From the IMG/VR virus record IMGVR_UViG_2681813321_000006: 33,831 nt of DNA; one strand, given 5' to 3'. Source of the DNA: a virus (lineage: Duplodnaviria > Heunggongvirae > Uroviricota > Caudoviricetes). The position numbers were made by a program, and so were the translations under genes. The notes beneath the pieces are model-generated. The model worked only from the letters and a program-made list of their open reading frames with translations. It ran no database searches and was not told the DNA's origin. This document shows positions 6,043-33,831 of the stretch, in pieces. The stretch's first letter is position 1. The number at the start of each line of letters is the position of its first letter.

Positions 6043-6345
6043 TTACTCCGTTGATACCAGTAAATGGCTGCGACCGCCCAGGTCAGTTTTTGTGGGGTAA
6101 TCCTGTGTGTTGTCATCACAGACCACCACCAGCTTAAAACCAAGCCCCATACAGGCGTACTGCGCCAGCAGGTCAGCACCAGTGACGAGAGGAATACCGG
6201 AGATTACCGGCTCCCCTCTGTCGTTCTGCAGGTCCATAATCCAGTACAGATCGCGCCATATGATGCTAATCCGCCAGGTAACACCACCCAGGACGATGCT
6301 GAACTGCTGGTTGTCCGCTGTCAGCGGAATTTCCTGAATTGCCAT
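6043..6345 (-). CDS. Tail/baseplate-associated protein, function unassigned
   Basis: 100-aa ORF tightly packed in the tail operon (3-nt gap below, stop/start overlap above). Confidence 0.35.
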   Translation of the reverse strand: MAIQEIPLTADNQQFSIVLGGVTWRISIIWRDLYWIMDLQNDRGEPVISGIPLVTGADLLAQYACMGLGFKLVVVCDDNTQDYPTKTDLGGRSHLLVSTE

Positions 6346-6932
6346 TAGCCGCCCCCCAGTAATGACGCCACGTTACCCGTGATGCTTTTCAGCAGTGAAG
6401 TATCTGGAGGCTTGGTGGTTTTGTTGCCGCTGTTCTGTACCGCCGACGTGCTGGCCCCTTCCTTCATGTTGGTTTTATCCGCGACGGAAATCTGCTGTGT
6501 CCGGGAGATAAGGACCTCCCTCAGGGTGAGGACGGCGGACAGGACGTTTTCGGTTGTCTTGTCCGTCGTCACTTCCAGCGCCCGGATCAACATGTTGCTG
6601 TACAGTCGTTTACCGGTTACCACATCGAAGGGGATACGGCTTTCCTGCAGATCCAGTAGCTCCTGATACGTCTGCTGAGGACTCAGGCCGAGCAGGCTGG
6701 TAGCCGTCAGGTTACTGGCAAAATCCAGCAATGCGCCACCACCGGCGAAACCAACCTCCATCACCACTTCTGACGGTTTTTTATAGGCATGATCAGCGAC
6801 AGCGGCCCCGACCTCTACCGGATGCTCTGTTATTTCAAGCATATCTGTATGCTTCTCTGAAATAACAACACAGGGAACAATCATTCCTATTTTTCTGCTC
6901 TGCTGATGAAAAAGTGTAGAGAGAATATCCAC
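6345..6932 (-). CDS. Tail protein downstream of tape measure, function unassigned
   Basis: 195-aa ORF; start overlaps the tape-measure stop by 1 nt. Positional call. Confidence 0.35.
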   Translation of the reverse strand: MDILSTLFHQQSRKIGMIVPCVVISEKHTDMLEITEHPVEVGAAVADHAYKKPSEVVMEVGFAGGGALLDFASNLTATSLLGLSPQQTYQELLDLQESRIPFDVVTGKRLYSNMLIRALEVTTDKTTENVLSAVLTLREVLISRTQQISVADKTNMKEGASTSAVQNSGNKTTKPPDTSLLKSITGNVASLLGGG

Positions 6933-8920
6933 TAACCCACCCTCACCTGATTACTTCGCATGACCTGAGCATTTGCAGACTGTTGCCGACGTGCAACCTC
7001 ATTACCGACAGCGTGCGGATCTCCACCACCGTAAATGTGGTAGGTATTTTGCTGGTTAACCTCTGTCACTTTGCCACTAATTCCCGCCACGGCAGCCTTA
7101 TTAATCAGCTCCCGAGAATAGATATTTCTTCCATTCTCATGCTGGATAATGCTGCTCATCAATGCTGACATGGTTTGCGGATCGCTCATATTCAGGGCAG
7201 CCCGGGGATCCACTCCCAGTCGTTGCGATACAGCCCTGATATACGCAGTTGTGTTGTTATTATCAGACGCAGGTGCCCAGGTAGAGATAATTTTCTCCAC
7301 ACTGTTTATTCCCCGTCCGGCGTACAGCATTAACTGACGAGCAAGAGCCCGTAATCCATCAAAAGCAGTTTCAAATCTGGCAAATCGCCCGCCCGGGCGT
7401 TCAAGAGAAGCCCCTGCCTGACCAGCAAAATTAAGGTTTCCCGGATTGTTATTCCGTTCTCCTCGTTTCGTAGCCTGTGCATGTTGTTCCGGCTCATCAT
7501 CACCAAACCAGCCGCGTACCGTCCGGCCCACACTGCGGGGATCGAATCCCCAGTGCTCTTTAATCCAGTCGGCAGTACTGTTAGCGCTGTCTGTAACCAT
7601 CGGCATCGCTGACGGATTTTCGCTGCCCTGATTAAGTATCTGTTTGCCGATGCTGACGGCATCAGCCCAGCGGCCATCTTTGATAGCGTTGAGCAGGTCG
7701 GCGATCATGTTCAGCATTTTGCTGAATTCGCCCATCTGGTCGATGAAGTTGCTGAAATCCCACTTCAGGGACCATGATTTGGGGTCAATATTGAGCAGTT
7801 TCGCCAGCGCTTTCACCAGGTCGTTAACGGTCGTTTTAAGGTCACGAACCATCTTCAGCGCGGCATCGACCTCCGGTTTCCACTTGCCCCAGTCAATCAG
7901 GCTGTCGCCGCCTTCCTTCCAGGTCTGATAGTCCTCCCACAGGAGGGCAATACCCGCCGCCAGCGCGGTAATGAGGCCAATCGGCGACATCCAGAACGTA
8001 CTGTTCAGAATGCGCAGCGCAATCGTCAGTGCGCCAAACAGCGAGATCAACTCCCGCGTTTGCTTATCCAGCGATTGCCACCAGGTGATAAGGCCTGATG
8101 TCCCCTCAATCAGTCTGAAGAACAGCCGCCCGATAATATCCCCGAGCGCCAGAATGCCTTTTATGGCTTTCGTCAGGGTCTGCTCGATACGAGGGAAGTT
8201 GTCCAGGATATGGCGGCGCAGGGTGTCCAGCGAACCCGCAAGCCCCCCCGCAAGATTAGAGCCGATTTTGTCACGGGCCATGCCTGCCATCGCGCCAAAC
8301 TCACGCAGGGAGGTCATAAATTTGTTGGAGCTTCTGGCCGCCTCGTCAGCATTGAAGCCGATAGCTTTCGCCATTGCGCTGTACTGCCCGGAGAAGCCAC
8401 CCACACCCCGGCGCATCGCCATAAGGGTATTTTCGTCAATGCCCAGCATCTGCGCATACTGGTTAGCCCGGTAATACGGCATGCTGCTGAGTTTCTGTCC
8501 AACGCCCGTAAAAATAGCGGCCATGTCACGCATGTTACCGCTGGCATCACGGGTCTGTACGCCCAGGCGATTCAGAAAGCCTTCTGCACCGGGATTGTTA
8601 CGAATAAACCGGGATAGGCTTTCCAGAGAAGATCGCGCAGCGTCCACGCTGCCGCCAACCTGCGAAACCGCATAGCCAATAGACTGAATTCCCTGGACTG
8701 TCGCGCCGGTGCGCTGTGACGCCCAGTAAAGATTATCCAGGCCGGAGGCGATCTTAGCCGTGAAGGCCACCACGGACAACGCAGCTCCTTCAACAGCCAG
8801 CCCCATTTTGATGACATTTGCAGTTGTACCGGCGAGGACAGAACCGAACTTTTTCGCTCCTGCATCATCCACACTGAAGCCAAGCGAGACGAGGAAATCT
8901 TTAATAGTTTCAGCGTTCAT
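6932..8920 (-). CDS. Tail tape measure protein
   Basis: Longest ORF in the tail module, between chaperone and baseplate genes. N-terminal Ala/Gly-rich helical region and central hydrophobic segments (LISLFGALTIALRIL, IGLITALAAGIALLW). Track start 8941 is TTG; ATG at 8918-8920 is preceded by GGAGAGAGG. Confidence 0.7.
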   Translation of the reverse strand: MNAETIKDFLVSLGFSVDDAGAKKFGSVLAGTTANVIKMGLAVEGAALSVVAFTAKIASGLDNLYWASQRTGATVQGIQSIGYAVSQVGGSVDAARSSLESLSRFIRNNPGAEGFLNRLGVQTRDASGNMRDMAAIFTGVGQKLSSMPYYRANQYAQMLGIDENTLMAMRRGVGGFSGQYSAMAKAIGFNADEAARSSNKFMTSLREFGAMAGMARDKIGSNLAGGLAGSLDTLRRHILDNFPRIEQTLTKAIKGILALGDIIGRLFFRLIEGTSGLITWWQSLDKQTRELISLFGALTIALRILNSTFWMSPIGLITALAAGIALLWEDYQTWKEGGDSLIDWGKWKPEVDAALKMVRDLKTTVNDLVKALAKLLNIDPKSWSLKWDFSNFIDQMGEFSKMLNMIADLLNAIKDGRWADAVSIGKQILNQGSENPSAMPMVTDSANSTADWIKEHWGFDPRSVGRTVRGWFGDDEPEQHAQATKRGERNNNPGNLNFAGQAGASLERPGGRFARFETAFDGLRALARQLMLYAGRGINSVEKIISTWAPASDNNNTTAYIRAVSQRLGVDPRAALNMSDPQTMSALMSSIIQHENGRNIYSRELINKAAVAGISGKVTEVNQQNTYHIYGGGDPHAVGNEVARRQQSANAQVMRSNQVRVG

Positions 8921-9097: not shown

Positions 9098-9550
9098 TCA
9101 GCCCTGTTGCAGGCTCTGCGTCGTGCTGGTAAGGGGTGTAGGCAAAAAATTTCCCAGCGAATCGGCGACCACCCGCGCCACCAGCTGCAGCATGACCAGC
9201 AAGTCAATATCATCAAACATCAGTTCGCCCTGGGTAAATACCGGCACCCATCCGTCCATATGACGCCGCGATACCACCGCAAGACAGGGATGAATAATCG
9301 CATCGGTGTCATCTTCGGTCAGGGAAGACAGTTCCTCAGCGATACGCGGGAGCATGGTTTCAAACACCGGTTTTAACTGTTCGAATTTCACGGTGTCGAT
9401 TTTGCCGTCAGCAGGCAAACGGGAGCGAATACTCCCGAAATCTGACATCATTCCTGCCAGCACCGGCAGAAGTTTGCGGGTCACTTTCAGCTGGTCAAAA
9501 ACGCTGAGTTTTGCCGTGCGATATTTCACGCCTTTAATTTCGAATTCCAT
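9098..9550 (-). CDS. Tail assembly chaperone (gpG/gpE-like position)
   Basis: 150-aa acidic ORF between the tube and tape-measure genes; contains a TTTTTTG heptamer near its 3' end (see findings). Confidence 0.45.
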   Translation of the reverse strand: MEFEIKGVKYRTAKLSVFDQLKVTRKLLPVLAGMMSDFGSIRSRLPADGKIDTVKFEQLKPVFETMLPRIAEELSSLTEDDTDAIIHPCLAVVSRRHMDGWVPVFTQGELMFDDIDLLVMLQLVARVVADSLGNFLPTPLTSTTQSLQQG

Positions 9551-9553
9551 GCA

Positions 9554-9994
9554 TTAAAACTCCCCGAGAACCTGGTCAATCTTGCCGCAGTCAAACACCC
9601 ACGGCATCGTATTACCGGTTTTAGCGTTGGCGTTATCCGGTTGTTTCTGGAACGCAACACTGCGTGCCGTGATGATGTCGCCGCTGACCTTGTTGCGGAT
9701 CACGATAACGTTATTCCCCCATGTGGCAGAAGACTGGCTCTGTGCGTTATACGCCAGCGACAATTTTTTATTTGTCGGTGATGTCTTCAGAAGGTTAACG
9801 GTAATCGTCCCGCTTTTATCTGCATGGAGACTGTGCATCACTTCGCCATCAGCACCGATGGTCATGGTGTTTTTAGGACCGCCCATCGCAACCACAATCC
9901 CCTCTTCAGAACTTGCCGAACCGTACCCGAGGTCAATCGAACCTGTCGGCCCGGTCAGCGTCGCAGTGACATCCATAAAAGAATAGGTAGACAT
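9554..9994 (-). CDS. Tail tube protein
   Basis: 146-aa ORF immediately downstream of the sheath-sized ORF. Size and order typical for a myovirus tube protein. Confidence 0.5.
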   Translation of the reverse strand: MSTYSFMDVTATLTGPTGSIDLGYGSASSEEGIVVAMGGPKNTMTIGADGEVMHSLHADKSGTITVNLLKTSPTNKKLSLAYNAQSQSSATWGNNVIVIRNKVSGDIITARSVAFQKQPDNANAKTGNTMPWVFDCGKIDQVLGEF

Positions 9995-10004
9995 TCACTT
10001 CCCC

Positions 10005-11150
10005 TTAGCGAACAACGTTAATCTGTACGTCAGCGTAATGAACCGCGCCTGCAAGTTTTATTGCAGCCTGAATCACCGGAGCCTTACGGGCTTCACGTTC
10101 TGATTGAGCCTGTTCATCCAGCGGCTGAGCGTATACGTAATAACCTTTGGGCAGTGTGTCACCTGATGACAACTGACCAAGGTCGCCCCCGTTCCATACG
10201 CCCGGAGCAATCAGTCCATTCTGAACGGCCTGATCCAGTGATTTTTCAACATTTGATAACAGTCGGGTAATACCGGCTTCAGTCTGGGGAACTTTCGTGG
10301 TGCTGGTATAAAGCAGGTTATAGAGGTTGGTCTGCACATAATTCTGTAACCAGTCCAGGCCGTGGCGTTCATCAAAGAAATCGCCGTTAGCCATCACTCC
10401 CTGCTGGAGGATAGCCGTATCATTCTGGTAGTACACGAATACATTGCAGTTTTTTGCATCAAGTGCCGATGCCTGGCTGACTGTCAGTGTTTCATACCCG
10501 ATACCCGGCTCCTGCTTAAACTTGAGCGTAATCGCGGTATTACTGCCATTGAAATTAACCGTGAATGCCCGGCCAAATGCAGATAACGCAGCGTATTTAT
10601 TACCCGATGAATACTGAATAAAACTGCGTGAATATCCGGCGGTTTTCAGTTTTGATGCCAAATCATCGCTGGATGCAGTCTGCAGGCATTTCTCATCGCT
10701 TGTCGTAATCGCCAGAATACGGCTTACAGAAGAGGATTCGATCGCCGCAGCCACTTTCAGCCAGTCTGCATCCTGAATATCTTCATCGTCTGCAATCCCC
10801 AGCCCATACCATGAAGTATAATCAAGCATGGCATTCACAGCCTGCTCCAGCGTCTCAGGCGTGGCCTGTTCGCTGTCTCCCTTCGTTTTCACCCAACGAC
10901 CAACAAAAACCTCCTGAGGTTTCGGTGATTGAGAGAAAAACACCTGCGCAGCCTTATATTCTGGTGATTCCACGCCAAAATCTTTTCCAATATCTTCCGC
11001 GGCAGAATAACGGCGAATGCGCTCACTTACCGGAATGATTGTGGACGGGCCGAGAATGAGTAATGCACCAAAATTTCGCCCTGATGCTGCACGCGGCGAC
11101 ATGATCACATCAACATTAACAACGTTTGATACAGGCAAGCCCTGTGCCAT
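10005..11150 (-). CDS. Contractile tail sheath protein
   Basis: 381-aa ORF preceding the tube ORF and following the head-tail connector cluster. Positional/size call. Confidence 0.55.
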
Positions 11151-23146: not shown

Positions 23147-23319
23147 CCTGTACCAATCTGTACCCACCTGTACCAGCTCTTTTCAAACCTTTTCCCCAAG
23201 CGACTTATATATATATATGGGGTTCTTAGTAATTAGGTTGGTACAGATGGTACAGTTGGTACTGACCTTTAAATTCAATTAGTTAAAATGTACCAACCTC
23301 TATTTTGAGGCTGGTACAG
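23147..23319. repeat. Iteron-like array of the 7-mer CTGTACC/GGTACAG flanking a (TA)n tract; putative replication origin or regulator binding array
   Basis: Direct copies at about 23148, 23158, 23168 (10-bp phasing) and 23289; inverted copies at about 23240, 23249, 23258 (9-bp phasing) and 23313; TATATATATATAT at 23206-23218 between the arrays. Confidence 0.55.
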
Positions 23320-25492
23320 GTTGGGACACCGCCTCAAAAATTCGAGTCATTTTCCCCCCAATTCGCCTTTGGGCACGCTTATACCCGCAATTTTGCAAAA
23401 CATTACTAATTCGCATTTCTTCGCGTTTTCCGATGCGGTCAGGATTTAGCCCAATCGCATCACGCAAAACATCACTTGCGCGTAAAAATTCGCAATTTCG
23501 CGGAAGTTCATTAGTCATCAGGTCTGGCGTGTCGAGCCATTTCTCTACCGTTTCAAGCCAAGCATCCTTGATGGTGTACTGTTCATGGACACTCGCTGCC
23601 AGTTGTTCAGCCTCACGGAACTGGATACCCCCCAGACGCTGAAACACCTCACGAGCCTCAGCCCAAAGTAAAAGGAGATCTCTTTTTATCGCTTTCACGT
23701 CGACTTTCGACACTTCCACGGGGAGCCAGCGACGGTTACCAGTCTTGTCCGCAAGGAATTCGTCCTCATTGGTGGTACCAACGAACACCAGGCGACGAGG
23801 AAACTGGGTGGCGAACTCCCGGTATTTCGGGATCCAGTTTTCGTGAGTACGCGTCACAAACGCTTTGATTGACTCCAGCTCTTTGGTATTAAGTCCGCGC
23901 AGTTCACCAATCTCTGCCACCAGCCGACCACGCATTTTTCGAGCGAGATCATCGTCTTTTTCGGCAAAAGAGATTTCAGTAAAAAACGCAGGATCAGGGC
24001 TCAGTGCCTCCACTCCGGAAGACTTACCGCAGCCCTGCGGACCAACGAGGATCGGCACCATATCCGCTTTGATGCCTGGCTCCAGTACTCGCCCCGCCAA
24101 CGCGGTCCACATGTACATAGACACCGCACGGGTATAAGGCGTGTCGGCTGTACCGAAGTGCGTATGGTAGAAACATTCGATGCGCGGCACGCCATCCCAC
24201 TCCAGCCCGTTCAGCCAGGTAATCGCTGAATCGAATGGTTGTTCATCGGCTGCAAGTAACACCACATCGCGAATAAGTTCACGACCAACAGGTTTAAATC
24301 CCCGCTTTTCCATCGTGATGCGCAGGCGCGCATAATCCGCATCGGTGAATGCTCGCCATTGTCCGGATCCTGCAGAGGCAAACATGATTTCGTCGCGGAA
24401 CTGGTCAAAGCGAATATCGATGTCCACAAAATCAGGGCGTACTACTGCTTTGGCTGCGTTGCTGATGGTTGCCTCGATACGCCCCCATTTATCACGCTCG
24501 AAAGCAGGCAGCGGTAAAGGTTCCGCCACTTCGGTGCTGGTCAGATCTTCGAAATCGTCGTTGCGGATCCCGATGGCATTAAGGAAATCTCCGTCATCAC
24601 GATGCGCACAACTGGCATGCAGGCATTTAAAATGCCCCTGCTCAAAGCCCGCGGTTCCCGCAGGAAAATAAGCTGTGCTTGTTGGATCGCCCCCGCTACT
24701 GTGGCCGTCTTCAAACGGACAGCGGATATATCGTTCACCATTTGCGCCATCCAGCAGCGTCCAGCCATTGGCATCAAGATATTCAGCTGTATCATCCGTC
24801 GCGCCGGGCGTGAATGCTGATCGGTCGCGCATCTTCGTGTTGCCCGCTTCGGTGGTTACCGACACAGGGAGTTGTTCAGCCAGGCGCTGCCACAGCGTTT
24901 CAAGCTGCTCACCAGTAATAGCCGGAGGTTCATCCGGCAAACCACCGTCCCATTCAATACGCGCGCCGCTGCTGTGCGTACCACAGGCAACGAACTGCTG
25001 CCCGTTCGCCAGCAACTCGATAATGCCCATATCCCCCGCCAGGCGATGGATACGCTTACAGAAATCACCATCAACGGCCAGCAGATACAGACACTTATTA
25101 CTGTTTGCTCGCCAGCGTCGCGGCGGCAACTCCCCCAGAAGTTGCACAAGCGTTTTGCGAATATCTGCCTGAATGTCTTCATCTTCGCTATCGCAGTCCA
25201 GCGCCAGCCAGCCATGGCCTGTACGCACGCAGATGCCATAATCCGGTTCATTCGACCAGCGGGCAAAATCATGCTCAGTAACAACATACCCGGTCCATTG
25301 AGCAATACCGGTGACCTGGCGGTCCCGGTTATAGCGACTTGGCGTCTTACCCAGCGCTTTCAGTTTACTATCAGGGGATATGGTCGCACCGGGGTTACAT
25401 ACAACTGGGAGAAGATGATCAGTTCTCCCCAATACCAGGTCGAAATGAAACCACTCATCAGGCGTAGCTCCCCATGGTTTGCTATCGGACAT
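23300..25492 (-). CDS. Primase-helicase (N-terminal prim-pol-like domain, C-terminal P-loop D5/VirE-type ATPase)
   Basis: 730 aa. Walker A GPQGCGKS and Walker B-like RRLVFVGTTNEDE in the C-terminal half. N-terminal LALDCDSED (DxD) and CGTHSSG motifs fit AEP prim-pol domains. Start coupled 3 nt after the cro-like stop. Confidence 0.7.
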   Translation of the reverse strand: MSDSKPWGATPDEWFHFDLVLGRTDHLLPVVCNPGATISPDSKLKALGKTPSRYNRDRQVTGIAQWTGYVVTEHDFARWSNEPDYGICVRTGHGWLALDCDSEDEDIQADIRKTLVQLLGELPPRRWRANSNKCLYLLAVDGDFCKRIHRLAGDMGIIELLANGQQFVACGTHSSGARIEWDGGLPDEPPAITGEQLETLWQRLAEQLPVSVTTEAGNTKMRDRSAFTPGATDDTAEYLDANGWTLLDGANGERYIRCPFEDGHSSGGDPTSTAYFPAGTAGFEQGHFKCLHASCAHRDDGDFLNAIGIRNDDFEDLTSTEVAEPLPLPAFERDKWGRIEATISNAAKAVVRPDFVDIDIRFDQFRDEIMFASAGSGQWRAFTDADYARLRITMEKRGFKPVGRELIRDVVLLAADEQPFDSAITWLNGLEWDGVPRIECFYHTHFGTADTPYTRAVSMYMWTALAGRVLEPGIKADMVPILVGPQGCGKSSGVEALSPDPAFFTEISFAEKDDDLARKMRGRLVAEIGELRGLNTKELESIKAFVTRTHENWIPKYREFATQFPRRLVFVGTTNEDEFLADKTGNRRWLPVEVSKVDVKAIKRDLLLLWAEAREVFQRLGGIQFREAEQLAASVHEQYTIKDAWLETVEKWLDTPDLMTNELPRNCEFLRASDVLRDAIGLNPDRIGKREEMRISNVLQNCGYKRAQRRIGGKMTRIFEAVSQPVPASK

Positions 25493-25828: not shown

Positions 25829-26452
25829 ATGTCTCTCGCAGCCCGTTTTAAAGCACGTCGTTTGGAATTAGGAATGACTCAAGTGGAAGTAGCGAATTCT
25901 GCAGGGGTTAGCCAACAATCCATAGAATCCATCGAAAGTGGACGAACCAGAAAGCCACGCAATCTTCTGGATCTGGCTAAGGCCTTGAAATGTAGCCCAG
26001 ACTGGCTACTGAACGGTAAAAATATTATGCCTCTCGCGGAGATAAGTACCAGACGCATACCTATATTAAGTTACGTTCAGGCAGGAGAGCTTACAGAAGC
26101 AAGAGACATAACAGATCTGACAGGGGAATTTGAATATATTTTGGCAGACTCTGACATTCCAGAAACATGCTTCGCATTACGTATTGATGGCGACAGCATG
26201 CAACCAGAGTTTAAAGAAGGAGACATTGTTATCATCGATCCTGATCTATGTCCTGCACCAGGGGAGTTTGTTGTCGCCAAAAACGACGGTCACGAAGCTA
26301 CATTTAAAAAATACCGTCCATTAGGAATCGGCATCGACGACTTTGAATTAATCCCCCTAAATCCTGATTACCCTATTTTTCGTAGTGCAGATATGAACTT
26401 ACAGATCATAGGTGTAATGATCGAACACCGTATTTACCGCCGTAAACGTTAG
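25829..26452 (+). CDS. CI-like repressor (HTH plus S24/LexA-type autopeptidase domain)
   Basis: Refined ATG 25829 with GAAGGA upstream. N-terminal HTH MTQVEVANSAGVSQQSIESIESG; C-terminal GDSM (catalytic Ser) and downstream Lys (VVAKNDGHEATFKKY) as in lambda CI/LexA. Confidence 0.8.
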   Translation: MSLAARFKARRLELGMTQVEVANSAGVSQQSIESIESGRTRKPRNLLDLAKALKCSPDWLLNGKNIMPLAEISTRRIPILSYVQAGELTEARDITDLTGEFEYILADSDIPETCFALRIDGDSMQPEFKEGDIVIIDPDLCPAPGEFVVAKNDGHEATFKKYRPLGIGIDDFELIPLNPDYPIFRSADMNLQIIGVMIEHRIYRRKR

Positions 26453-26471
26453 TATTCCCACCGTAAATATC

Positions 26472-26491
26472 GGGAGGCGTAACAGCCTCCC
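26472..26491 (+). terminator. Stem-loop downstream of cI (terminator-like, weak U-tract)
   Basis: GGGAGGC-gtaaca-GCCTCCC, 7-bp perfect stem, 20 nt after the cI stop; followed by TTACCCCATTTG rather than a clean T-run. Confidence 0.4.
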
Positions 26492-26498
26492 TTACCCC

Positions 26499-26518
26499 AT
26501 TTGTAAAGTCTTACAAAT
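26499..26518. promoter_or_regulatory. 20-bp palindromic operator-like site ATTTGTAA-agtc-TTACAAAT
   Basis: 8-bp perfect inverted arms, 4-bp spacer, immediately after the cI-distal hairpin and upstream of the rightward replication operon. A related inverted repeat ATACAA-N6-TTGTAT lies at about 26587-26604. Confidence 0.45.
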
Positions 26519-26774
26519 TAAATTCACTTAAATATCAATAAAGTAGTATTCACACCCCACAAAATACCACGTTTGCGGTTTACACAATACAACTCAAATT
26601 GTATCTTTAGCCACAAGTCGAACGGCGCGACTCTAAACCATGCGTCGGGACCGTGGCGGGACAGGATGTCGGCAATACGGGTCAGTAAGTTCCCTTTGGG
26701 GTGCGGCGAAGCACTGCCTACTGATACAAGTCGAAGCCGCCGAACCACCAAAGTGAACTGAATGAGGAAACGGC

Positions 26775-26969
26775 GTGAAAACATATAAACCGCTCAAAGG
26801 TGAATGCCCTGCTTGCCAAACACAGCTTCAGACACCAAAGCCAAAACGATACCAAATCAACGAATGTTATGAGCACTGCCCTGGATGTGGTGCTTTCCTG
26901 CATACCATTGCAACGCACTGGCGTGTCCGCTTCAACCTTGTGGTACCACGTACGCACAATACCAACTGA
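26775..26969 (+). CDS. Small zinc-ribbon-like protein
   Basis: 64-aa ORF, GTG start with GAGGA upstream. Two CxxC pairs (CPAC, CPGC) about 20 residues apart; followed by an intrinsic terminator. Confidence 0.4.
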   Translation: MKTYKPLKGECPACQTQLQTPKPKRYQINECYEHCPGCGAFLHTIATHWRVRFNLVVPRTHNTN

Positions 26970-27000
26970 ATCATCCATGTAATTGCTGTGTGTAGTCTTT

Positions 27001-27026
27001 GCCCGCCGCAAGTGACGGGCTTTTTT
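27001..27026 (+). terminator. Intrinsic terminator after the zinc-ribbon ORF
   Basis: GCCCG...CGGGC stem followed by TTTTTTAT. Confidence 0.5.
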
Positions 27027-27085
27027 ATGTCTGAAAGCGCACTCGCAACAGCGCGCTCCCCGATATGAAAAAAGGAATACAACCG

Positions 27086-27235
27086 ATGAAACCTGAACAC
27101 CTCTATCGACTGACGGGGCGCGATGTTCTCCGTTATCGCCGTAAAAACTTCGATTTGATGACCGGTCTGGCCGTTGCCACTGCGCTCGGTCTGATCATCA
27201 CTTTCATTCTCCTTGTTGCGAGGACCACAGTATGA
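27086..27235 (+). CDS. Small single-pass membrane peptide (49 aa), translationally coupled to the next gene
   Basis: ATG 27086 with AAGGA upstream. Product [49 protein letters not shown] has a basic N-terminus and one C-terminal TM helix. Stop TGA overlaps the ATG of the 300-aa ORF (ATGA). Below track cutoff. Confidence 0.3.
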   Translation: MKPEHLYRLTGRDVLRYRRKNFDLMTGLAVATALGLIITFILLVARTTV

Positions 27236-28134
27236 GTTTAGAAACCAGTCTCGAACTTAATAATCAACTTCTGGCACAACATAATGCGCTGCTTGAACGT
27301 CTTATCCGCACAATGGCATCAGGTATTGTTATGCATCCTGACACGATTTCACGAGTGCAGGAATGTCGGGATACAGCAACTGAAACTGAAAATATGTCAG
27401 CGGCAATGACACTGGATGATCTGGAGTTCAGCGACGTTATCGCACTGGCTGGTTTCTACCCGGTAGCCACCCCTATCACAGAAGACATGCTGCAACGTGC
27501 TGTTGCCTACCGTGATGCTGAAGGCGATAAACGAGTAGTTCAGATTGATCCTCTCGACAGCGCATTGCAGGGCGTCAAACGAGCCAGGGCACTGCATAAA
27601 CCCGCTCTTCTGGACCTGTCCCGTAACATTCTTAAGTTCTGGGACGACCTGCCAACCATCGGCGAGCGACGTGCTTTTGCCGAGCAACTACTTGATGCAC
27701 CTGCAGATGGGCGTGATGAAGTTAAGCCGAAAAAGGCCAGTAACAAAGATGGAGAACGCACGGGGCCGTTTTACGTCAAAAATGTATCCGGCACAGCAGC
27801 CAGTGAACTCCACACCTTACGCAAGTTGAACGAGATGCTTAAAAAAGGCCATATCGAGATCAACCGTGTTGAGTACCTTCAGCTGCAGGAAGAATTTGCA
27901 CGCAGAGACGCAGCAAATTCCAGCCAGAATAATGACGCCAAAGATGACCATACAATTGATTTCGCGGCACTACGCAAACAAGCTGAAGGGTTGATCCTCC
28001 AGTTAGCAAAAGGGGGTTACCGGGCAGAAGCTATTGCAATTCTGGAAAAACAGGGAGCCAGGAAACTTGGTGAAGTAACGGATGAAAATCTCGCTGAAGT
28101 AATCACCCTGGCTGAAAAAGCACTGGAGGGTTAA
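27232..28134 (+). CDS. Hypothetical protein heading the replication operon (unknown function)
   Basis: 300-aa ORF, mostly helical and acidic by composition; 2-nt gap to the nuclease gene. No motif recognised. Confidence 0.45.
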
Positions 28135-28136
28135 TC

Positions 28137-29438
28137 ATGCCAGACGTTCATGCACAACTTTCTCCATCATCAGCGCATCGATGGATGCGCTGCCCAGGAA
28201 GTCTGGCGCTGGAGGCCACACAACCGGATAAAGAAACAACTTTTGCAATCGAGGGCACTGCAGCGCACGCGCTTGCTGAAAAAGTTCTACGAAACAGGCA
28301 AAGCCACCCGGAACACTACGCCGGATGCAATGTTTCTATGTTTCTCGGCTCATACCCCCTTCGCGAAAATCCTGATGATACATCTGGCCCACAGGTGGAT
28401 GATGAAATGGTCGAAGCCGTTGGCCGGTATGTTGATACGGTCTGGACTCTTGCACAGAATAATGAACTATTGGTTGAACAACGTGTTGATTTCTCACATA
28501 TAACGGGGGTGGAAGAATCTTTCGGAACTGCCGACGGCATAATCATCGCTGGTAACGAATTACAAATCCACGACCTGAAATATGGCAAAGGCGTCCGCAT
28601 TGATGCAGAACAAAATGAGCAACTACAACTGTATGCTCTGGGTGCGCTCGAACAATTCAGCATGCTGTATGACTTTGAGACTGTAAGATTATTTATTCAC
28701 CAGCCAAGGCTCAACCACGTTTCAGAATGGTCGTTAACCGTACAGGAACTTCAGTCTTTCGGTGAACGGGCACAGGAGGCCGCAACCAGTGCGATCCTTG
28801 TTCTCAATATTGCTGAATGCGAAGGCATTGAGACACTACCGCTGGAAAACTTCATACCTGGAGAAAAACAGTGCCGCTTCTGTAAAGCAAAAGCTATTTG
28901 CACTGCCCAGAAAATGCAGCATTTACAAACAGCGGCCAGCGATTTTGAAGATCTGACAAAGCCTGTCAGCGAAATAATCACCAATGCCAGCGCACGTGTA
29001 CCTCTGTTAACCATTGAGCAGCTTGCGGAGATCTATAGCCAGGCCGACTTTATTGAATCCTGGCTAAAGGCAGTACGGGACCGGGTTCACAATGAACTCA
29101 ATGCCGGACATCCGGTACCGGGGTTTAAACTGGTAACAGGAAAACAAGGTAACCGGGCCTGGAGTGATGAAGAGGCAGCTCGCGCACTTCTGAAGGACCA
29201 GTTCAGGTACAAAACTGAAGAAGTATTCGACTTTAAACTTATTAGTCCCACAAAAGCCGAAAAACTTATCAAAAAGGCCAGTCCACGCCGTTGGTCAAAA
29301 GTCGAGGCACTGATAACACGAGCTGATGGTAAACCAACCGTCATTCCCGAGTCAGACCCACGCCCCGCACTCAATATCAACCCTGTAAATGATTTCGACG
29401 ACGTATCCGACGATACGCTAACCGCAGACCTCATCTGA
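28137..29438 (+). CDS. PD-(D/E)XK nuclease, Cas4/RecB-like with Fe-S cysteines (DUF2800-like)
   Basis: 433 aa. Motifs GTADGIII (D), IHDLKYGKG (D-x-K), QLQLYALG (QxxxY); N-terminal Cys (WMRCPGS) plus C-terminal C-x2-C-x5-C ([10 protein letters not shown]) match the Cas4-type 4-Cys cluster. Confidence 0.65.
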
Positions 29439-29453
29439 TTTAAGGAAATACCC

Positions 29454-30002
29454 ATGAAACTGAAGCTGAACAATGTTCGTCTGGCCTTCCCGTCTCTGTT
29501 TGAAGCTAAAACTGTAAACGGCGAAGGCGATCCGCGTTTCTCCGCAGTATTTTTAATGTCTCCCAAACACCCACAACTGGAAGAAATCCGTAAAGCTATG
29601 AAGCAGGTAGCGAAGGAAAAATGGGGAGAGAAGTGGGAGCCCATTTATAACCAGCTGGAGAAAAAACTCAATCTGTGCCTGCATGATGGTGATGAAAAAG
29701 CAGAGTATGAAGGCTTCCCCGGTAATTTCTTCCTGAATGCTGCTAACAAAGCGCGCCCAGCTGTTCTTGATCGCGATCGTTCGCCACTTATTCAGGCTGA
29801 CGGACGTCCCTATGCAGGGTGCTATGTAAACGCCGTTATCGATATCTGGGCACAGGACAATAATTTCGGTAAACGCATTAATGCCTCACTCGGCGGAGTC
29901 CAGTTCCTGCGAGACGGCGATGCATTCGCTGGCGGCGGAGTGGCAAGCGCTGACGATTTCGACGATATCAGCGAAGGTGCTGATGCTGAAGCACTAATTT
30001 AA
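29454..30002 (+). CDS. DUF2815-like phage protein (putative ssDNA-binding/replication accessory)
   Basis: 182 aa; N-terminal MKLKLNNVRLAFPSLFE... resembles DUF2815 proteins that accompany DUF2800 nucleases and family-A polymerases (recollection). Confidence 0.5.
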   Translation: MKLKLNNVRLAFPSLFEAKTVNGEGDPRFSAVFLMSPKHPQLEEIRKAMKQVAKEKWGEKWEPIYNQLEKKLNLCLHDGDEKAEYEGFPGNFFLNAANKARPAVLDRDRSPLIQADGRPYAGCYVNAVIDIWAQDNNFGKRINASLGGVQFLRDGDAFAGGGVASADDFDDISEGADAEALI

Positions 30003-30017
30003 CCCTACTTCATAGAC

Positions 30018-30036
30018 GCCCGGTTAAACACCGGGC
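30018..30036. other. Hairpin between convergent genes (no U-tract)
   Basis: GCCCGG-ttaaaca-CCGGGC, 6-bp stem, between the DUF2815-like gene (+) and the AT-rich membrane gene (-). Confidence 0.4.
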
Positions 30037-30054
30037 TACTGATTAGGCGTATAA

Positions 30055-30684
30055 TCACTCAGGAATCTTAATCTTTCTCAATTCTTTATTTAGTTCACAG
30101 ATCTTTTTCTTAGACGGGAAAGTATCATACATCCAAAAACCAACAGTCTCTAAAACTATTATCATAACCATATACACAAGATAATTTAAAAGGCCTTCAT
30201 TTTGCCCTATGGAAATAATGCAGATAATAGAAAAAAGGGTAAACAGCACAAAACACAGAAAGGAAAACAGACGACTAATAATAAATAAAAAACCTGAAAA
30301 ATCAACATTAATAAAAAACACTCCGTTATCTTTCTCTATATAATTCTGAAGCTTAATCAACTGATTTATATACTGTCTTTTTTCTAATCTATTGCAAATG
30401 TAAATAACATCTCTTCGGTTATAAGATGATTGCAATTTCAGCGCATCACGAATAATTTTATCATTTATTCTTTTTTCTATGGCACTCTTATCCTCCTCAT
30501 CCAGATAACGTTCATACTTAACTAAATATAAAATTAACTTCTTAACATATTTAGGCTCTTTATACTTATAATTAAAAATGATCTTTCTTATCCAGACTCC
30601 CATAACAATCAAACATGAAAAAATATATCCAGCTATTTTCTCCAGATGCTCTGTATGGTCAATCAAGTATTGGATCATATGCAT
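30055..30684 (-). CDS. AT-rich multi-pass membrane protein inserted antisense in the replication operon (moron; candidate exclusion/abortive-infection effector)
   Basis: 209-aa ORF at about 28-30% G+C (hand count) versus about 60% in the flanking polymerase gene. Hydrophobic segments IAGYIFSCLIVMGVWI, FLFIISRLFSFLCFVLFTLFSIICIISI, LLNYLVYMVMIIVLETVGFW; Lys/Tyr-rich cytoplasmic region. Opposite strand to both neighbours. Confidence 0.55.
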   Translation of the reverse strand: MHMIQYLIDHTEHLEKIAGYIFSCLIVMGVWIRKIIFNYKYKEPKYVKKLILYLVKYERYLDEEDKSAIEKRINDKIIRDALKLQSSYNRRDVIYICNRLEKRQYINQLIKLQNYIEKDNGVFFINVDFSGFLFIISRLFSFLCFVLFTLFSIICIISIGQNEGLLNYLVYMVMIIVLETVGFWMYDTFPSKKKICELNKELRKIKIPE

Positions 30685-30730
30685 AATTAATCTTTTAATC
30701 AGTTAATAGAATAAAAACCAAGGTAAACAC

Positions 30731-32794
30731 ATGTCCAATATACTATGGGGCGACCTGGAAACCTATTGCGAAATCCCTATTACGAACGGTACCCATGCGT
30801 ATGCCGAAGGCGTTGAAGTGATGCTTTTCGCATGGGCTATCAACGACGGGCCAGTAAACGTGTGGGATATCACTGCCGGTGGTGGTATTCCACACGGCTT
30901 ATACGAAGCAATCGCAGACCCTGAAACCCTGCTTTATTTCCATAACTCTCACTTCGACCGCACCGTTCTGCGTTATGCAATGCCGCGCCTGGCACCGCCA
31001 GTCGAACGTTGGCGCGACACAATGGTGCAGGCGCTGGCGCACGGTCTCCCGGGGTCTCTGGGGGAACTCTGCGAAGTACTAGGCGTCCCGCAAGACAAAG
31101 CGAAGGACAAAGAAGGTAAAGCGCTGATCCAGCTGTTCTGTAAGCCACGCCCGAAAAACAGCAAACTGCGCCGGGCCACCAGCAAAACCCACCCGGAAGA
31201 ATGGCGGCGCTTTGTTGCTTACGCCGGACTGGATATCGAGGCAATGCGCGAAGTCTATAAACGTCTGCCGAAGTGGAATTATCAGGGGACAGAACTGGCG
31301 CTCTGGCATCGTGATCAGCAGATCAATGACCGGGGCGTCTGCATGGACGTGGAACTCGCACGCGCTGCGATCGACGCGGTAGACCAGGAACAAAAGCGCC
31401 TGGCAAAGCGTACACAGGAAATGACTGATGGCGAAGTGCAGGCAGCCACACAACGAGACGCGTTGATTAAGCACATTGTTGAATCCTACGGTGTGGAGCT
31501 ACCAGACATGCAACGCAGTACTCTGGAACGTCGTATTGCCGACCCCGATTTACCATCTGCCGTGAAAGAACTGCTGGCTATCCGCCTGCAGGCCAGTACT
31601 ACCAGCACCAGTAAATACAAGGCACTGATGAAAGGCGTAAGCCACGACGGGCGCTTACGCGGTACGCTACAGTTCTGCGGGGCGTCACGTACCGGTCGTT
31701 GGGCCGGACGGCTATTCCAGCCCCAGAACCTTCCCCGCCCTTCACTAAAACAGGAACAAATAGACGAAGGCATCGAAGCACTGAAAGCCGGATGTGCAGA
31801 CCTGCTGTTTGACAATATCATGGAACTAACCAGTTCAGCGTTACGTGGCTGCATTATCGCGCCAACAGGCAAAAAGCTGGTGGTAAGTGACTTGTCGAAC
31901 ATTGAAGGCCGTATGCTGGCATGGCTGGCGGGAGAAGAATGGAAACTGAATGCATTCAGAGAGTACGACGCCGGAACGGGTCCGGACTTATATAAACTGG
32001 CGTATGCAAAAGCTTTCGATATTGCACCAGATGATGTTGATAAACACATGCGTCAGATCGGTAAAGTCATGGAACTCGGTCTGGGTTATGGTGGTGGTGT
32101 GTCGGCCTTCATCACTTTTGCACTGGTTTACGGTCTCGATCTCGACGAGCTGGCGAACGCCGCACTACCAAACATTCCCCGCGATGTTATCCGCGAGGCG
32201 AAAAGCTGGTACGACGAATCGGTTAAACGCAAGTCAACCTACGGGCTTTCTGAACGGGTATTTATCGCCTGCGACTCACTTAAACGTCTCTGGCGCCGGG
32301 CGCATCCCGCGACCTGTGATTTCTGGTACGAACTGGAGCGCACCGTCCGCACTGCAATCGCCACACCGCAAAAAACATTGTATTGCGGTTATCTTAAAAT
32401 CCGCCGCGATGGCGCGTGGCTGCGCATACAGCTACCATCCGGACGCGCTGTATGCTACCCGTCTCCGGTTATCGAAAAAGGGAATATCACCTACATGGGG
32501 GTTAACTCTTATTCGCGTAAATGGCAACGACTCAAAACCTACGGCGGAAAGCTGGTGGAGAACATCACCCAGGCGGCCGCCCGCGACATTCTGGCCGGAA
32601 ACATGCCGCTTATCGAAGATGCCGGTTACAGCATTGTGCTGACGGTACACGACGAGGTGATCACCGAAGCACCTGACACAGAAGATTTCAACGATAAAGC
32701 GCTTTCCGCGCTTCTCTCCACTGACCCCGAATGGGCGCCCGATATCCCACTGAACGCTGGCGGTTTTGAGGCGTACCACTACAAAAAAGATTGA
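30731..32794 (+). CDS. Family A DNA polymerase with N-terminal 3'-5' exonuclease domain
   Basis: 687 aa. Exo motifs: GDLETYCE (DxE), [17 protein letters not shown]. Pol motifs: [15 protein letters not shown] (motif A-like), [16 protein letters not shown] (motif B, K...YG), LTVHDEV (motif C HDE). AAGG RBS. Confidence 0.85.
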
Positions 32795-32858
32795 TATAAC
32801 TCACCTTATCGAGCTATGGCGACATGCTGAATTCGAGTAAATTAAAGGAACAATACTT

Positions 32859-33620
32859 ATGCAGGAACTAACTGAAATGCCGATCACCTATCCATACCCG
32901 AGAGAAACTTTTCCTGACTTTTTGAGGGAGTGTGGGTTCACCAATTTTTCCCACGAACAGCGTGAGACTTGTGACTGCTATCGTTTAACGAATGGCGTAA
33001 TTGTTAACCTTTACACCACCCGGACCATTCAGTTTCAAGGTAACCCTCAAGAACGTCCCAATGTTGAAACTGCAATAATGACCCATTTAGGAACGCCGCC
33101 CACGGCAACACCACTAGCCGTAGAACAGCCATCTGAGCTCCCCAAAAAGATATTCATTGTTCACGGCCATGACCATACTGCAAAGGAGCAACTTGAGCTA
33201 ATCCTTCATAAACTTGGATTACCAGACCATTTCATTTTGCAGAATACGGGAGGGACTGGACTCACCATTATTGAAGAGCTTGAACGTGAAATTGGGCAAG
33301 GACAAACTGCTACCCGTTTCGGGATTGTTCTTTTGACACCTGATGATATGGGATACTCAAAGCGCGCCGGTGAAGCAGAAATCCAACCCCGCGCAAGACA
33401 GAACGTTGTACTCGAGATGGGTATGCTTCTTTCGTCCTTAGGGCGCAGCAATGTAGCAATCCTTCAGAAACAGCACCTAGAACAGCCTTCTGATGCTAAC
33501 GGGATTTTGTATCTGAATTTCAACGACCATGTACGTGAAACAGTTCCTCGTCTAGTGCAACGGTTACAAAATTCTGGTTTCGAATTTACACAAGCTCAAA
33601 TAGCTAACGCTTCCTCGTAA
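32859..33620 (+). CDS. Two-domain protein: unknown Cys-containing N-terminal domain plus C-terminal TIR-like (COG4271-type) domain
   Basis: 253 aa, AAAGGAA RBS. C-terminal region KKIFIVHGHD...RFGIVLLTPDD...RARQNVVLEMGML matches my recollection of the TIR-like nucleotide-binding family signature. N-terminal about 95 aa with ETCDCYR. Assignment not verified by search. Confidence 0.5.
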   Translation: MQELTEMPITYPYPRETFPDFLRECGFTNFSHEQRETCDCYRLTNGVIVNLYTTRTIQFQGNPQERPNVETAIMTHLGTPPTATPLAVEQPSELPKKIFIVHGHDHTAKEQLELILHKLGLPDHFILQNTGGTGLTIIEELEREIGQGQTATRFGIVLLTPDDMGYSKRAGEAEIQPRARQNVVLEMGMLLSSLGRSNVAILQKQHLEQPSDANGILYLNFNDHVRETVPRLVQRLQNSGFEFTQAQIANASS

Positions 33621-33643
33621 TTACCCCTTATTGTTGATTACAA

Positions 33644-33668
33644 CCCTGCATCGCGGGGTTTTTTATTT
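33644..33668 (+). terminator. Intrinsic terminator after the TIR-like gene
   Basis: CCCTGC-atc-GCGGGG stem (one G.U pair) followed by TTTTTTATTT. Confidence 0.6.
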
Positions 33669-33747
33669 GGGAATAAAAACCCTATGTCATTTAAATACCG
33701 GGACAGTCCGCTTTATTGTAAGCGACTCGTCAGAACCGTATTGATAT

Positions 33748-33831
33748 TTACTGAGAGCTCAGATCAACTTTCCAGGGCAACAGATCGCGTACCCGGTTTG
33801 CCGGCCAGTCCTGGATATGTTCAATGACGTA
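33748..33831 (-). CDS. 3' end of an unidentified minus-strand gene running off the window
   Basis: Open frame from the window edge to TAA at 33748-33750; visible C-terminus ...YVIEHIQDWPANRVRDLLPWKVDLSSQ. Too short to assign. Confidence 0.2.
   Translation of the reverse strand, partial: YVIEHIQDWPANRVRDLLPWKVDLSSQ

Follow-up and report, generated by a model that had tools for sequence, protein, structure and literature searches.

The stretch of DNA analysed here (33,831 nucleotides, IMG/VR record IMGVR_UViG_2681813321_000006; hereafter the window) is an Escherichia coli prophage integrated beside yfhL. This report concerns two adjacent genes of its replication module, which encode a DUF2800 nuclease of 433 amino acids (aa) and a predicted single-stranded DNA (ssDNA)-binding and annealing protein of the DUF2815 family (182 aa; hereafter the SSB), and whose products end in a shared acidic-aromatic motif (Table 1). 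The window is 100% identical to E. coli strain FDAARGOS_1059, and the prophage occurs in 159 of the 5426 complete genomes of this species; three induced phages (vB_EcoM-606R2 and relatives) show 98% identity to it. The two genes lie in one frame with a gap of 15 nucleotides (nt) between them and an AAGGA ribosome-binding site 5' of the SSB gene, and both open reading frames (ORFs) have the positions and lengths assigned to them in an earlier reading of this DNA from its letters alone (the sequence-only reading). RefSeq already labels their products 'DUF2800 domain-containing protein' and 'DUF2815 family protein'.

Profile searches recovered both family assignments proposed in the sequence-only reading. 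The nuclease is matched by the Pfam DUF2800 profile (PF10926) over positions 1–368 of 368 with an e-value of 1.4e-109 (367.1 bits, against a cut-off of 21), by Pfam PDDEXK_1 with an e-value of 2.2e-10 and by PHROG 69, 'exonuclease', with an e-value of 2e-135; no NCBIfam model matches either the nuclease or the SSB. Along the protein we could read C19, E39-G-T-A-A-H44, D133, D146-L-K148, Q162-L-Q-L-Y166 and C246-R-F-C249-K-A-K-A-I-C255, which include the D...D-x-K and QxxxY signatures of the PD-(D/E)XK or RecB-like superfamily with its restriction-endonuclease-like α/β fold. Conservation was counted in a MAFFT alignment of the query with 150 representatives 40–60% identical to it: the cysteine and catalytic positions listed in Table 1 are invariant or nearly so, H44 is retained in 150 of the 151 sequences, and the remaining two cysteines, C64 and C228, are not conserved. 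The same cysteine and catalytic residues are also invariant in a 12-sequence alignment that includes proteins from Streptococcus, Clostridioides and Bacteroides phages. The Cas4/RecB-nuclease signature claimed from the letters (D, D-x-K, QxxxY and one cysteine plus C-x2-C-x5-C) is thus borne out, with conservation in 147 to 151 of 151 sequences.

The four conserved cysteines flank the active site in the arrangement, one N-terminal plus three, that is shared by AddB and Cas4 and for which these were named 'iron staple' proteins (PMC3466216). Given this correspondence, they are very likely to be metal ligands, predicted to hold either an Fe-S cluster or zinc. A phage-type relative, the DUF3799 nuclease 3L0A, has zinc at the equivalent site in its crystal (PMC3466216), and the Fe-S claim of the sequence-only reading should be softened, as sequence cannot tell Fe-S from zinc. 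Its term 'Cas4-like' is valid at the level of the fold and superfamily but not of the family: the nuclease lies outside the Cas4 family proper, with no match to a Pfam Cas4 family at E≤0.01 and only 15.8 bits (E=0.003) against the PADLOC Cas4 model, no single stretch passing. Furthermore, PADLOC gave no convincing defence-model match for the nuclease or the SSB, and there are no cas genes in the window or its flanks, the locus being a prophage replication module.

We found no support for a role of the nuclease in CRISPR adaptation, which the sequence-only reading had entertained. A wider form of this idea is that the nuclease targets host immunity, either by skewing CRISPR spacer acquisition in the manner of Cas4 or by degrading host or competitor DNA. 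It draws on the Cas4-family fold, on a Campylobacter phage Cas4-like protein that stimulates the uptake of host-derived spacers (PMC5704561) and on the TIR candidate-defence gene among the neighbours of the pair. We regard it as highly improbable, given that the nuclease is outside the Cas4 family proper and that, in the about 250 related loci from IMG/VR and GenBank used for our linkage and tail analysis, it stands invariably amid replication genes, linked to the annealase and to a family-A DNA polymerase (PolA), in phages of Gram-negative, Gram-positive and Bacteroides hosts and with any host CRISPR type. Moreover, the only recorded link to immunity is the reverse one, in which a DUF2800 nuclease is sensed by the host: Bas14_0045 ('B14T') triggers retron type IX, for which it needs an intact D/K active site, and the D177A/K179A substitutions abolish triggering (bioRxiv 10.64898/2026.07.14.737667). 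Since a DUF2800 homolog acts in this way, a latent retron trigger may be present in this prophage, which about 3% of E. coli genomes contain.

A sequence search of the PDB with the nuclease returned only a chance match (E=0.07). In structural comparison, the figures listed for its matches are 15.3 and 14.1 for AdnA, 12.3 for Dna2, 11.2 for ACE1 (Cas4 family), 11.0 each for MGME1 and Cas4-Cas1, 10.6 for the Cas4 protein SSO0001, 10.4 for DUF3799 (3L0A), 10.2 for RecE, 9.7 for AddA, 9.1 for lambda Exo and 8.7 for RecB. The C-terminal domain of about 135 aa that follows the catalytic region has no structural relative in the PDB. Residues ~276–410 were modelled with a predicted local distance difference test (pLDDT) score above 90 (89.6 when the domain was modelled alone), the linker at residues 261–280 with about 75, and about the last 25 aa are flexible. 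The invariant or near-invariant residues of this domain include G324, G329, K331, R340, W342, S370, P371 and W386. The preprint on Bas14 calls the post-catalytic region disordered, whereas in the window nuclease residues 276–410 form a confidently modelled, folded domain.

The SSB is matched by PF10991 (formerly DUF2815, now 'Enc34_ssDNA-bd') with an e-value of 7.6e-44 (149.9 bits, against a cut-off of 26) over profile positions 1–172 of 176, and by PHROG 112, 'Gp2.5-like ssDNA binding and annealing protein', with an e-value of 6.2e-57. Solved relatives with the OB-fold (4JG2, 5ODJ/5ODK/5ODL and 4KLK) were recovered with e-values of 1e-13 to 1e-16. Its C-terminus is the acidic tail expected of such proteins, the last 29 aa having a net charge of -9 and ending ...SADDFDDISEGADAEALI. 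These features suggest that the 182-aa protein is an ssDNA-binding and annealing protein of the T7 gp2.5 type. T7 gp2.5 itself has an acidic tail with a terminal phenylalanine. The DUF2815 protein ORF6 of phage Enc34 has been solved and binds ssDNA, and its acidic tail has been described (Cernooka et al. 2017, PMC5686142); in four crystal structures the tail of Enc34-type SSBs sits in the concave sheet of an adjacent SSB molecule (PMC5686142).

Two further observations concern the SSB family. In Dhillonvirus KarlBarth and Kagunavirus St162 the DUF2815 SSBs reach 231–265 aa, and their DEDL/DSDL motif is followed by long C-terminal extensions of alternating acidic and basic low-complexity sequence (e.g. 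...DDEDDEDDDEDEAPRKRRRR), whereas the tails found elsewhere are short and acidic. In Pseudomonas phage ZQG1, the protein encoded at 7511–8098 is a DUF2815 SSB (E=5.5e-34 against the SSB profile); its GenBank label, 'Cas4 nuclease superfamily protein', appears to be an error.

The DUF2800 family is large, with 17,297 cluster representatives at 50% identity in an exhaustive HMMER search (E≤1e-3), and tblastn located a homolog of the nuclease in 1763 of 50,697 phage records, mainly of phages of Salmonella, Escherichia, Streptococcus, Bacteroides, Klebsiella and Staphylococcus. In 162 of 163 loci the gene immediately 3' of the nuclease gene, on the same strand, is that of the SSB, the exception being a contig that ends at the nuclease, and the same holds for all 80 loci of the Gram-positive-type clade and for 8 of 8 isolate phages. 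PolA is encoded downstream on the same strand in 223 of the 250 related loci, so that the recurrent pairing with a family-A polymerase pointed out in the sequence-only reading is real. It had also been named: Steczkiewicz et al. 2021 describe a duf2800-gp2.5-polA module in phages of Gram-positive and Gram-negative hosts, without a separate ssb gene (PMC8093625). The window has this same order, interrupted only by a 209-aa minus-strand ORF, and no other ssb gene is annotated in the prophage stretch that we examined. Earlier still, Lopes et al. 2010 had come upon Gp2.5-like proteins in 19 phages by way of the linked gene of a 'recE-like' exonuclease, and the homolog from phi12 was seen to carry out single-strand annealing in vivo (PMC2896510). 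Given this literature and the RefSeq labels, the nuclease-SSB-PolA module is already described and annotated, and the finding in its original form is ordinary: it re-identifies a common module and changes little. The statement that its mechanism is poorly defined is too strong, as in vivo annealing, a solved ssDNA-binding homolog and the triggering of retron IX have all been published.

Beyond the known module, the C-termini of the two proteins display a feature that is apparently unreported so far. Both tails carry a motif with the consensus [DE][DE]F[DE]D[LIV][ST], and in many cases an acidic, amphipathic D-L-[VI] then closes the protein; a further copy of the motif is found inside the nuclease. 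In the window the two tails are in identical register, DFDD[VI]S-x6-[DA]LI. The internal copy, which includes F270, lies just after the cysteine cluster; its aromatic column is F in 135 of 150 sequences, and [DE]F occurs within 35 aa after the cysteine cluster in 217 of 225 nucleases. When the internal 8-mer was compared with the tail 8-mer of the same protein, the mean BLOSUM score was 13.6, while random 8-mers averaged -7.1 and shuffled pairs 11.2 (z=5.4). A search of the accessible literature, outside which most subscription-journal papers lie, found no report of the shared nuclease/SSB tail.

Among distinct tails, 82 of 159 from nucleases and 132 of 147 from SSBs have [DE][DE][FW] within their final 25 aa, as against only 21 of the 2029 other ORFs that these loci contain with a length of 150 aa or more. 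In permutations run without correction for phylogeny, cognate nuclease and SSB tails scored above shuffled pairs in local alignment with z=6.1 (n=56) and z=5.2 (n=40), and with z=2.8 (p=0.004) for 12 clusters at 50% identity; a test anchored at the C-terminus gave p of about 2e-4 to 2e-3. The cognate mean was about 27, whereas for the tails of the other ORFs the median score was 14 and the 99th percentile 26.

Furthermore, the motif changes in step in the two proteins from clade to clade, giving rise to F, W and DL variants. The nuclease and SSB tails, respectively, read NDFDDVS and DDFDDIS in the clade of the window, DFQDLSDM and DFEDLSNV in Xfas53, SDFEEV and DDFEAV in ZQG1, and DDFDDLD and DDFDELED in RcBigEagle. 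They read GAWDDEDDDEV and DAWDEDEEWEDEV in Chivirus YSD1, ATDEDLSNE and CSDEDLDNDE in Dhillonvirus KarlBarth, and ATDDDLAN and ATDSDLDDD in Kagunavirus St162. In the Gram-positive-type clade the nuclease tail is ...TAKDDFSEE and the SSB tail ...RAEDDFATxDDDDFLx. Conversely, two DUF2800 nucleases whose genes are not followed by one for a DUF2815 protein, those of Vibrio phage 1.009.O and Morganella phage Henu15, do not have the acidic motif (n=2). A recent duplication or gene conversion as the source of the similar tails was rejected, since only 27 of 48 nt are identical and the serine codons differ (TCC versus AGC).

Table 1. Nuclease and SSB genes, their predicted elements and neighbouring replication genes, with positions in the window
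Feature	Position	Strand	Remarks
DUF2800 nuclease gene, 433 aa	28137..29438	+	N-terminal RecB/AdnA/Cas4-fold PD-(D/E)XK domain, C-terminal domain, acidic tail
Cys19, N-terminal ligand of predicted four-Cys metal 'staple'	28191..28193	+	147/151 conserved
Catalytic core D133, D146-L-K148, Q162-x3-Y166	28533..28634	+	all five 151/151 conserved
C246-x2-C249-x5-C255, three C-terminal ligands of predicted metal staple	28872..28901	+	151/151 conserved
Internal motif copy	28932..28958	+	in lower-confidence linker between nuclease and C-terminal domains
C-terminal domain, aa 276–410	28962..29366	+	conserved, function unknown
Nuclease C-terminal tail motif	29382..29435	+	F at column in 138/149 sequences; matches cognate SSB tail
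DUF2815/Enc34 ORF6-type (T7 gp2.5-like) SSB/annealing protein gene, 182 aa	29454..30002	+	PF10991, PHROG 112, solved relatives
SSB C-terminal tail motif	29946..29999	+	15-aa register equal to nuclease tail
300-aa protein, apparently translationally coupled to nuclease	27232..28134	+	phrog_6784, E=1.1e-179
Family-A DNA polymerase (3'-5' exonuclease and polymerase), third of conserved trio	30731..32794	+	Pfam DNA_pol_A; PHROG 17, E=2.3e-127
VapE-type primase-helicase, divergently transcribed, same replication module	23300..25492	-	Pfam VapE-like, E=2.3e-60; PHROG 256, 1156; RefSeq

Taken with the conserved gene order, these observations suggest, with a probability that we put at roughly 0.6, that the pair supplies the exonuclease and the annealase/SSB at the core of a phage module for recombination-dependent replication and repair, working with the adjacent PolA, and that its two members are coupled by a shared docking peptide. 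The nuclease would degrade the 5' strand at double-strand ends or at 5' flaps, as its fold and its relatives with 5'-3' polarity (Cas4, AddB and Dna2) would predict; 5'-3' polarity is on record both for the exonuclease Cas4 Sso0001 and for the nuclease AddB (PMC3466216). Judging from its homologs, the OB-fold SSB would then coat the exposed 3' single strand and anneal complementary strands, and the phage polymerase would extend the annealed 3' end. Such a sequence of steps could support recombination-dependent replication, concatemer formation and the repair of breaks.

For the enzyme itself the main rival is a role in replisome maturation resembling that of Dna2 or T7 gp6, in which it would remove lagging-strand RNA primers and 5' flaps, the SSB would be purely replicative and recombination would be secondary. 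This reading draws on the strong structural match to Dna2 and on the PolA of the window, in which neither a Pfam profile search nor the RefSeq annotation detected a 5' nuclease domain. However, host Pol I and RNase H are able to remove primers, Bas14 survives truncation of its homolog, and the top structural matches of the nuclease are end-resection nucleases (AdnA). The family was, moreover, discovered through its linkage to annealases, and the phi12 partner anneals in vivo (PMC2896510). We therefore consider a Dna2-like role unlikely.

As a change of the motif in the nuclease is matched by one in the SSB across clades, a single phage-encoded site is most likely where both would dock. Our preferred candidate is the concave β-sheet or ssDNA-binding face of the SSB, where the SSB tails lie in the four crystal structures; docking there would tether the nuclease to the SSB and pass the nascent ssDNA straight over to it. 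PolA could be the site instead, as in T7, whose gp2.5 tail contacts the polymerase and the helicase and competes with the OB domain (PMC10359462). That the co-evolving motif, present in three copies per gene pair and in a fourth on the SNF2-like helicase of Chi-like phages, docks on a single phage-encoded hub, probably the SSB's own concave or ssDNA-binding face, is a tentative proposal, to which we give somewhat less than even odds.

The likeness of the tails could alternatively be compositional: the matching ends would then be acidic tails of the general SSB kind, or they would mimic the C-terminus of the host SSB and so reach host SSB-interacting proteins. All SSB tails are acidic with an aromatic residue, the score of shuffled nuclease-SSB pairs is still high (mean 22.6, against 26.7 for cognate pairs), and the DFDD of the window resembles the tip of the E. 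coli SSB, which ends in DFDDDIPF. However, the motif shifts in step between its F, W and DL forms among phages of related enterobacterial hosts, the SSB tips of which are highly conserved. It is also absent from the nuclease in the two cases that have no DUF2815 partner and is found in only 1% of the other ORFs in these loci, and the cognate pairs exceed the shuffled ones with z=5–6. Thus, neither generic tails nor host mimicry appears a probable explanation, and we rate them below the Dna2-like role.

It should be noted that several points weigh against the recombination and coupling reading that we favour. Besides the high scores of shuffled pairs, the cognate SSB tail is the single best match of a nuclease tail in only 2 of 56 cases. 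The F-type motif was departed from independently only two or three times, the negative control consists of two phages, and the tail permutation statistics ignore phylogeny. An acidic tail that includes an aromatic residue is a general property of SSBs, and the internal copy may instead be a structural element that packs on the nuclease. The polarity, substrate and metal of the nuclease are all inferred, and the docking site is only a proposal. Finally, Bas14 tolerates truncations of its DUF2800 gene, so that the nuclease can be dispensable in the laboratory (bioRxiv 10.64898/2026.07.14.737667).

The tail motif was also sought in other proteins of the module. A third protein routinely bearing the tail was rejected, as the threshold was reached in only 3 of 86 PolA, 0 of 43 VapE, 2 of 73 VRR-NUC and 1 of 31 SNF2 helicase sequences. 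In Salmonella phage YSD1 the SNF2-like helicase encoded at 9183–10742 ends in ...KNKGVWDDEE, which is the tail motif of its clade; this instance looks real but isolated, and the helicase of the window prophage does not have the motif. As the nuclease, SSB and helicase of YSD1 all end with it, these three enzymes may share one docking peptide. A subset of DUF2800 nucleases (locus L152; representatives P0180 and P0202) continues past DDFxDLT to a conserved C-terminal ...HPFR[QDS], which their cognate SSBs do not have and which may be a second, different docking motif. In Vibrio phage 1.009.O and Morganella phage Henu15 the gene after the nuclease (6144–6938 and 6086–7006, respectively) encodes an unannotated protein of 264 or 306 aa ending in ...GFLPNGQ or ...GFLAGNGQYA; these proteins may represent an alternative SSB/annealase partner family.

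The replication module comprises a cro-like gene, VapE on the minus strand, a CI/LexA-like repressor, the 300-aa protein, the nuclease, the SSB, the 209-aa minus-strand ORF, PolA and a TIR protein; a VRR-NUC protein, a DEAD/SNF2 helicase and the integrase are encoded in the same prophage outside the window. The stop codon of the 300-aa ORF lies 2 nt before the nuclease ATG. Its phrog_6784 product has no match in Pfam, NCBIfam or PADLOC and holds its position just 5' of the nuclease in close relatives. The 209-aa ORF (30055–30684, minus strand), situated between the SSB and PolA genes, has a GC content of ~0.36 against ~0.5 in its neighbours, a hydrophobic C-terminal half and a match to phrog_10579 (function unknown), with none in Pfam or PADLOC; on the strength of these features it looks like a moron insertion. 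An SSB-to-PolA gap of ~720 nt is typical among close relatives. Directly 3' of PolA, a TIR-domain protein of 253 aa (32859–33620, plus strand) has matches to PDC-S35, which PADLOC lists as a candidate single-gene defence family (E=6.8e-109), and to the Pfam CAP12/Pycsar TIR domain (E=2.9e-31). Its gene probably serves defence and is carried by the prophage; 3' of it, at 33642–33660, there is a terminator-like hairpin. An Rfam scan of the whole window gave no match, and a promoter and terminator scan of 26400–33831 gave counts equal to the shuffle level.

The new leads are thus modest and consist of the shared co-varying docking motif and of a C-terminal domain with no structural relative in the PDB. 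If the coupling through the motif is true, it would show what keeps the nuclease, annealase and polymerase of the module together. If the SSB is indeed the hub, the hand-off from resection to annealing would be explained for a module present in about 3.5% of sequenced phages, and there would be a handle on the C-terminal domain of the nuclease. In that arrangement the 'SSB tail' would be found on the partner enzymes and its receptor on the SSB, opposite to the logic of the bacterial SSB C-terminus and reminiscent of eukaryotic RPA70N, which docks acidic peptides. Coupling between a cognate exonuclease and annealase matters in recombineering, and such coupling, if real, could also help to develop gp2.5-type systems as tools for this purpose.

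Comparison with known systems places these proteins as follows. AddB, AdnAB, Dna2, Cas4 (SSO0001) and Exo5, the 'iron staple' nucleases, have a RecB-type core with one N-terminal cysteine and C-x2-C-x5-C as in the window nuclease, which differs from them in having no helicase domain and no Cas1/Cas2 context and in its marginal sequence similarity to Cas4 models. Also close to the window nuclease is Bas14_0045, which belongs to the same Pfam family over its full length and has a PD-(D/E)XK D/K active site, an AdnA/RecB-like fold and an adjoining gp2.5-like SSB and PolA. The Dhillonvirus relative from KarlBarth is 31% identical, and the Dhillonvirus tails are of the DEDL variant whereas those of the window are of the DF variant. 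The SSB resembles Enc34 ORF6 in its OB-fold, its acidic C-terminal tail and the location of its gene between those of the nuclease and PolA; the tails are, however, clade-specific, being DDFDDIS...ALI in the window and AWDEDEEWEDEV in the homolog from Chivirus YSD1, a relative of Enc34. In lambda Exo-Red β and in RecE-RecT the annealase is of the Rad52 type, which is not found here, the annealase of the window being of the OB-fold gp2.5 type. The window nuclease further differs from the exonucleases of these systems in being monomer-like, with a Cys4 metal staple and an additional C-terminal domain, and the proposed coupling would be through a short linear motif rather than an interface between folded domains. 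The tether proposed between nuclease and SSB would thus be analogous to the lambda Exo-Red β complex in purpose and to RPA70N bound to acidic peptides in chemistry. Finally, the T7 replisome offers a likeness in that several of its DNA-metabolism proteins end in similar acidic-aromatic peptides, for which there is one basic binding site, and the gp2.5 tail vies with ssDNA for the OB cleft. T7 gp4 carries a tail similar to that of gp2.5; in the module described here the second carrier of the tail is a nuclease rather than a helicase.

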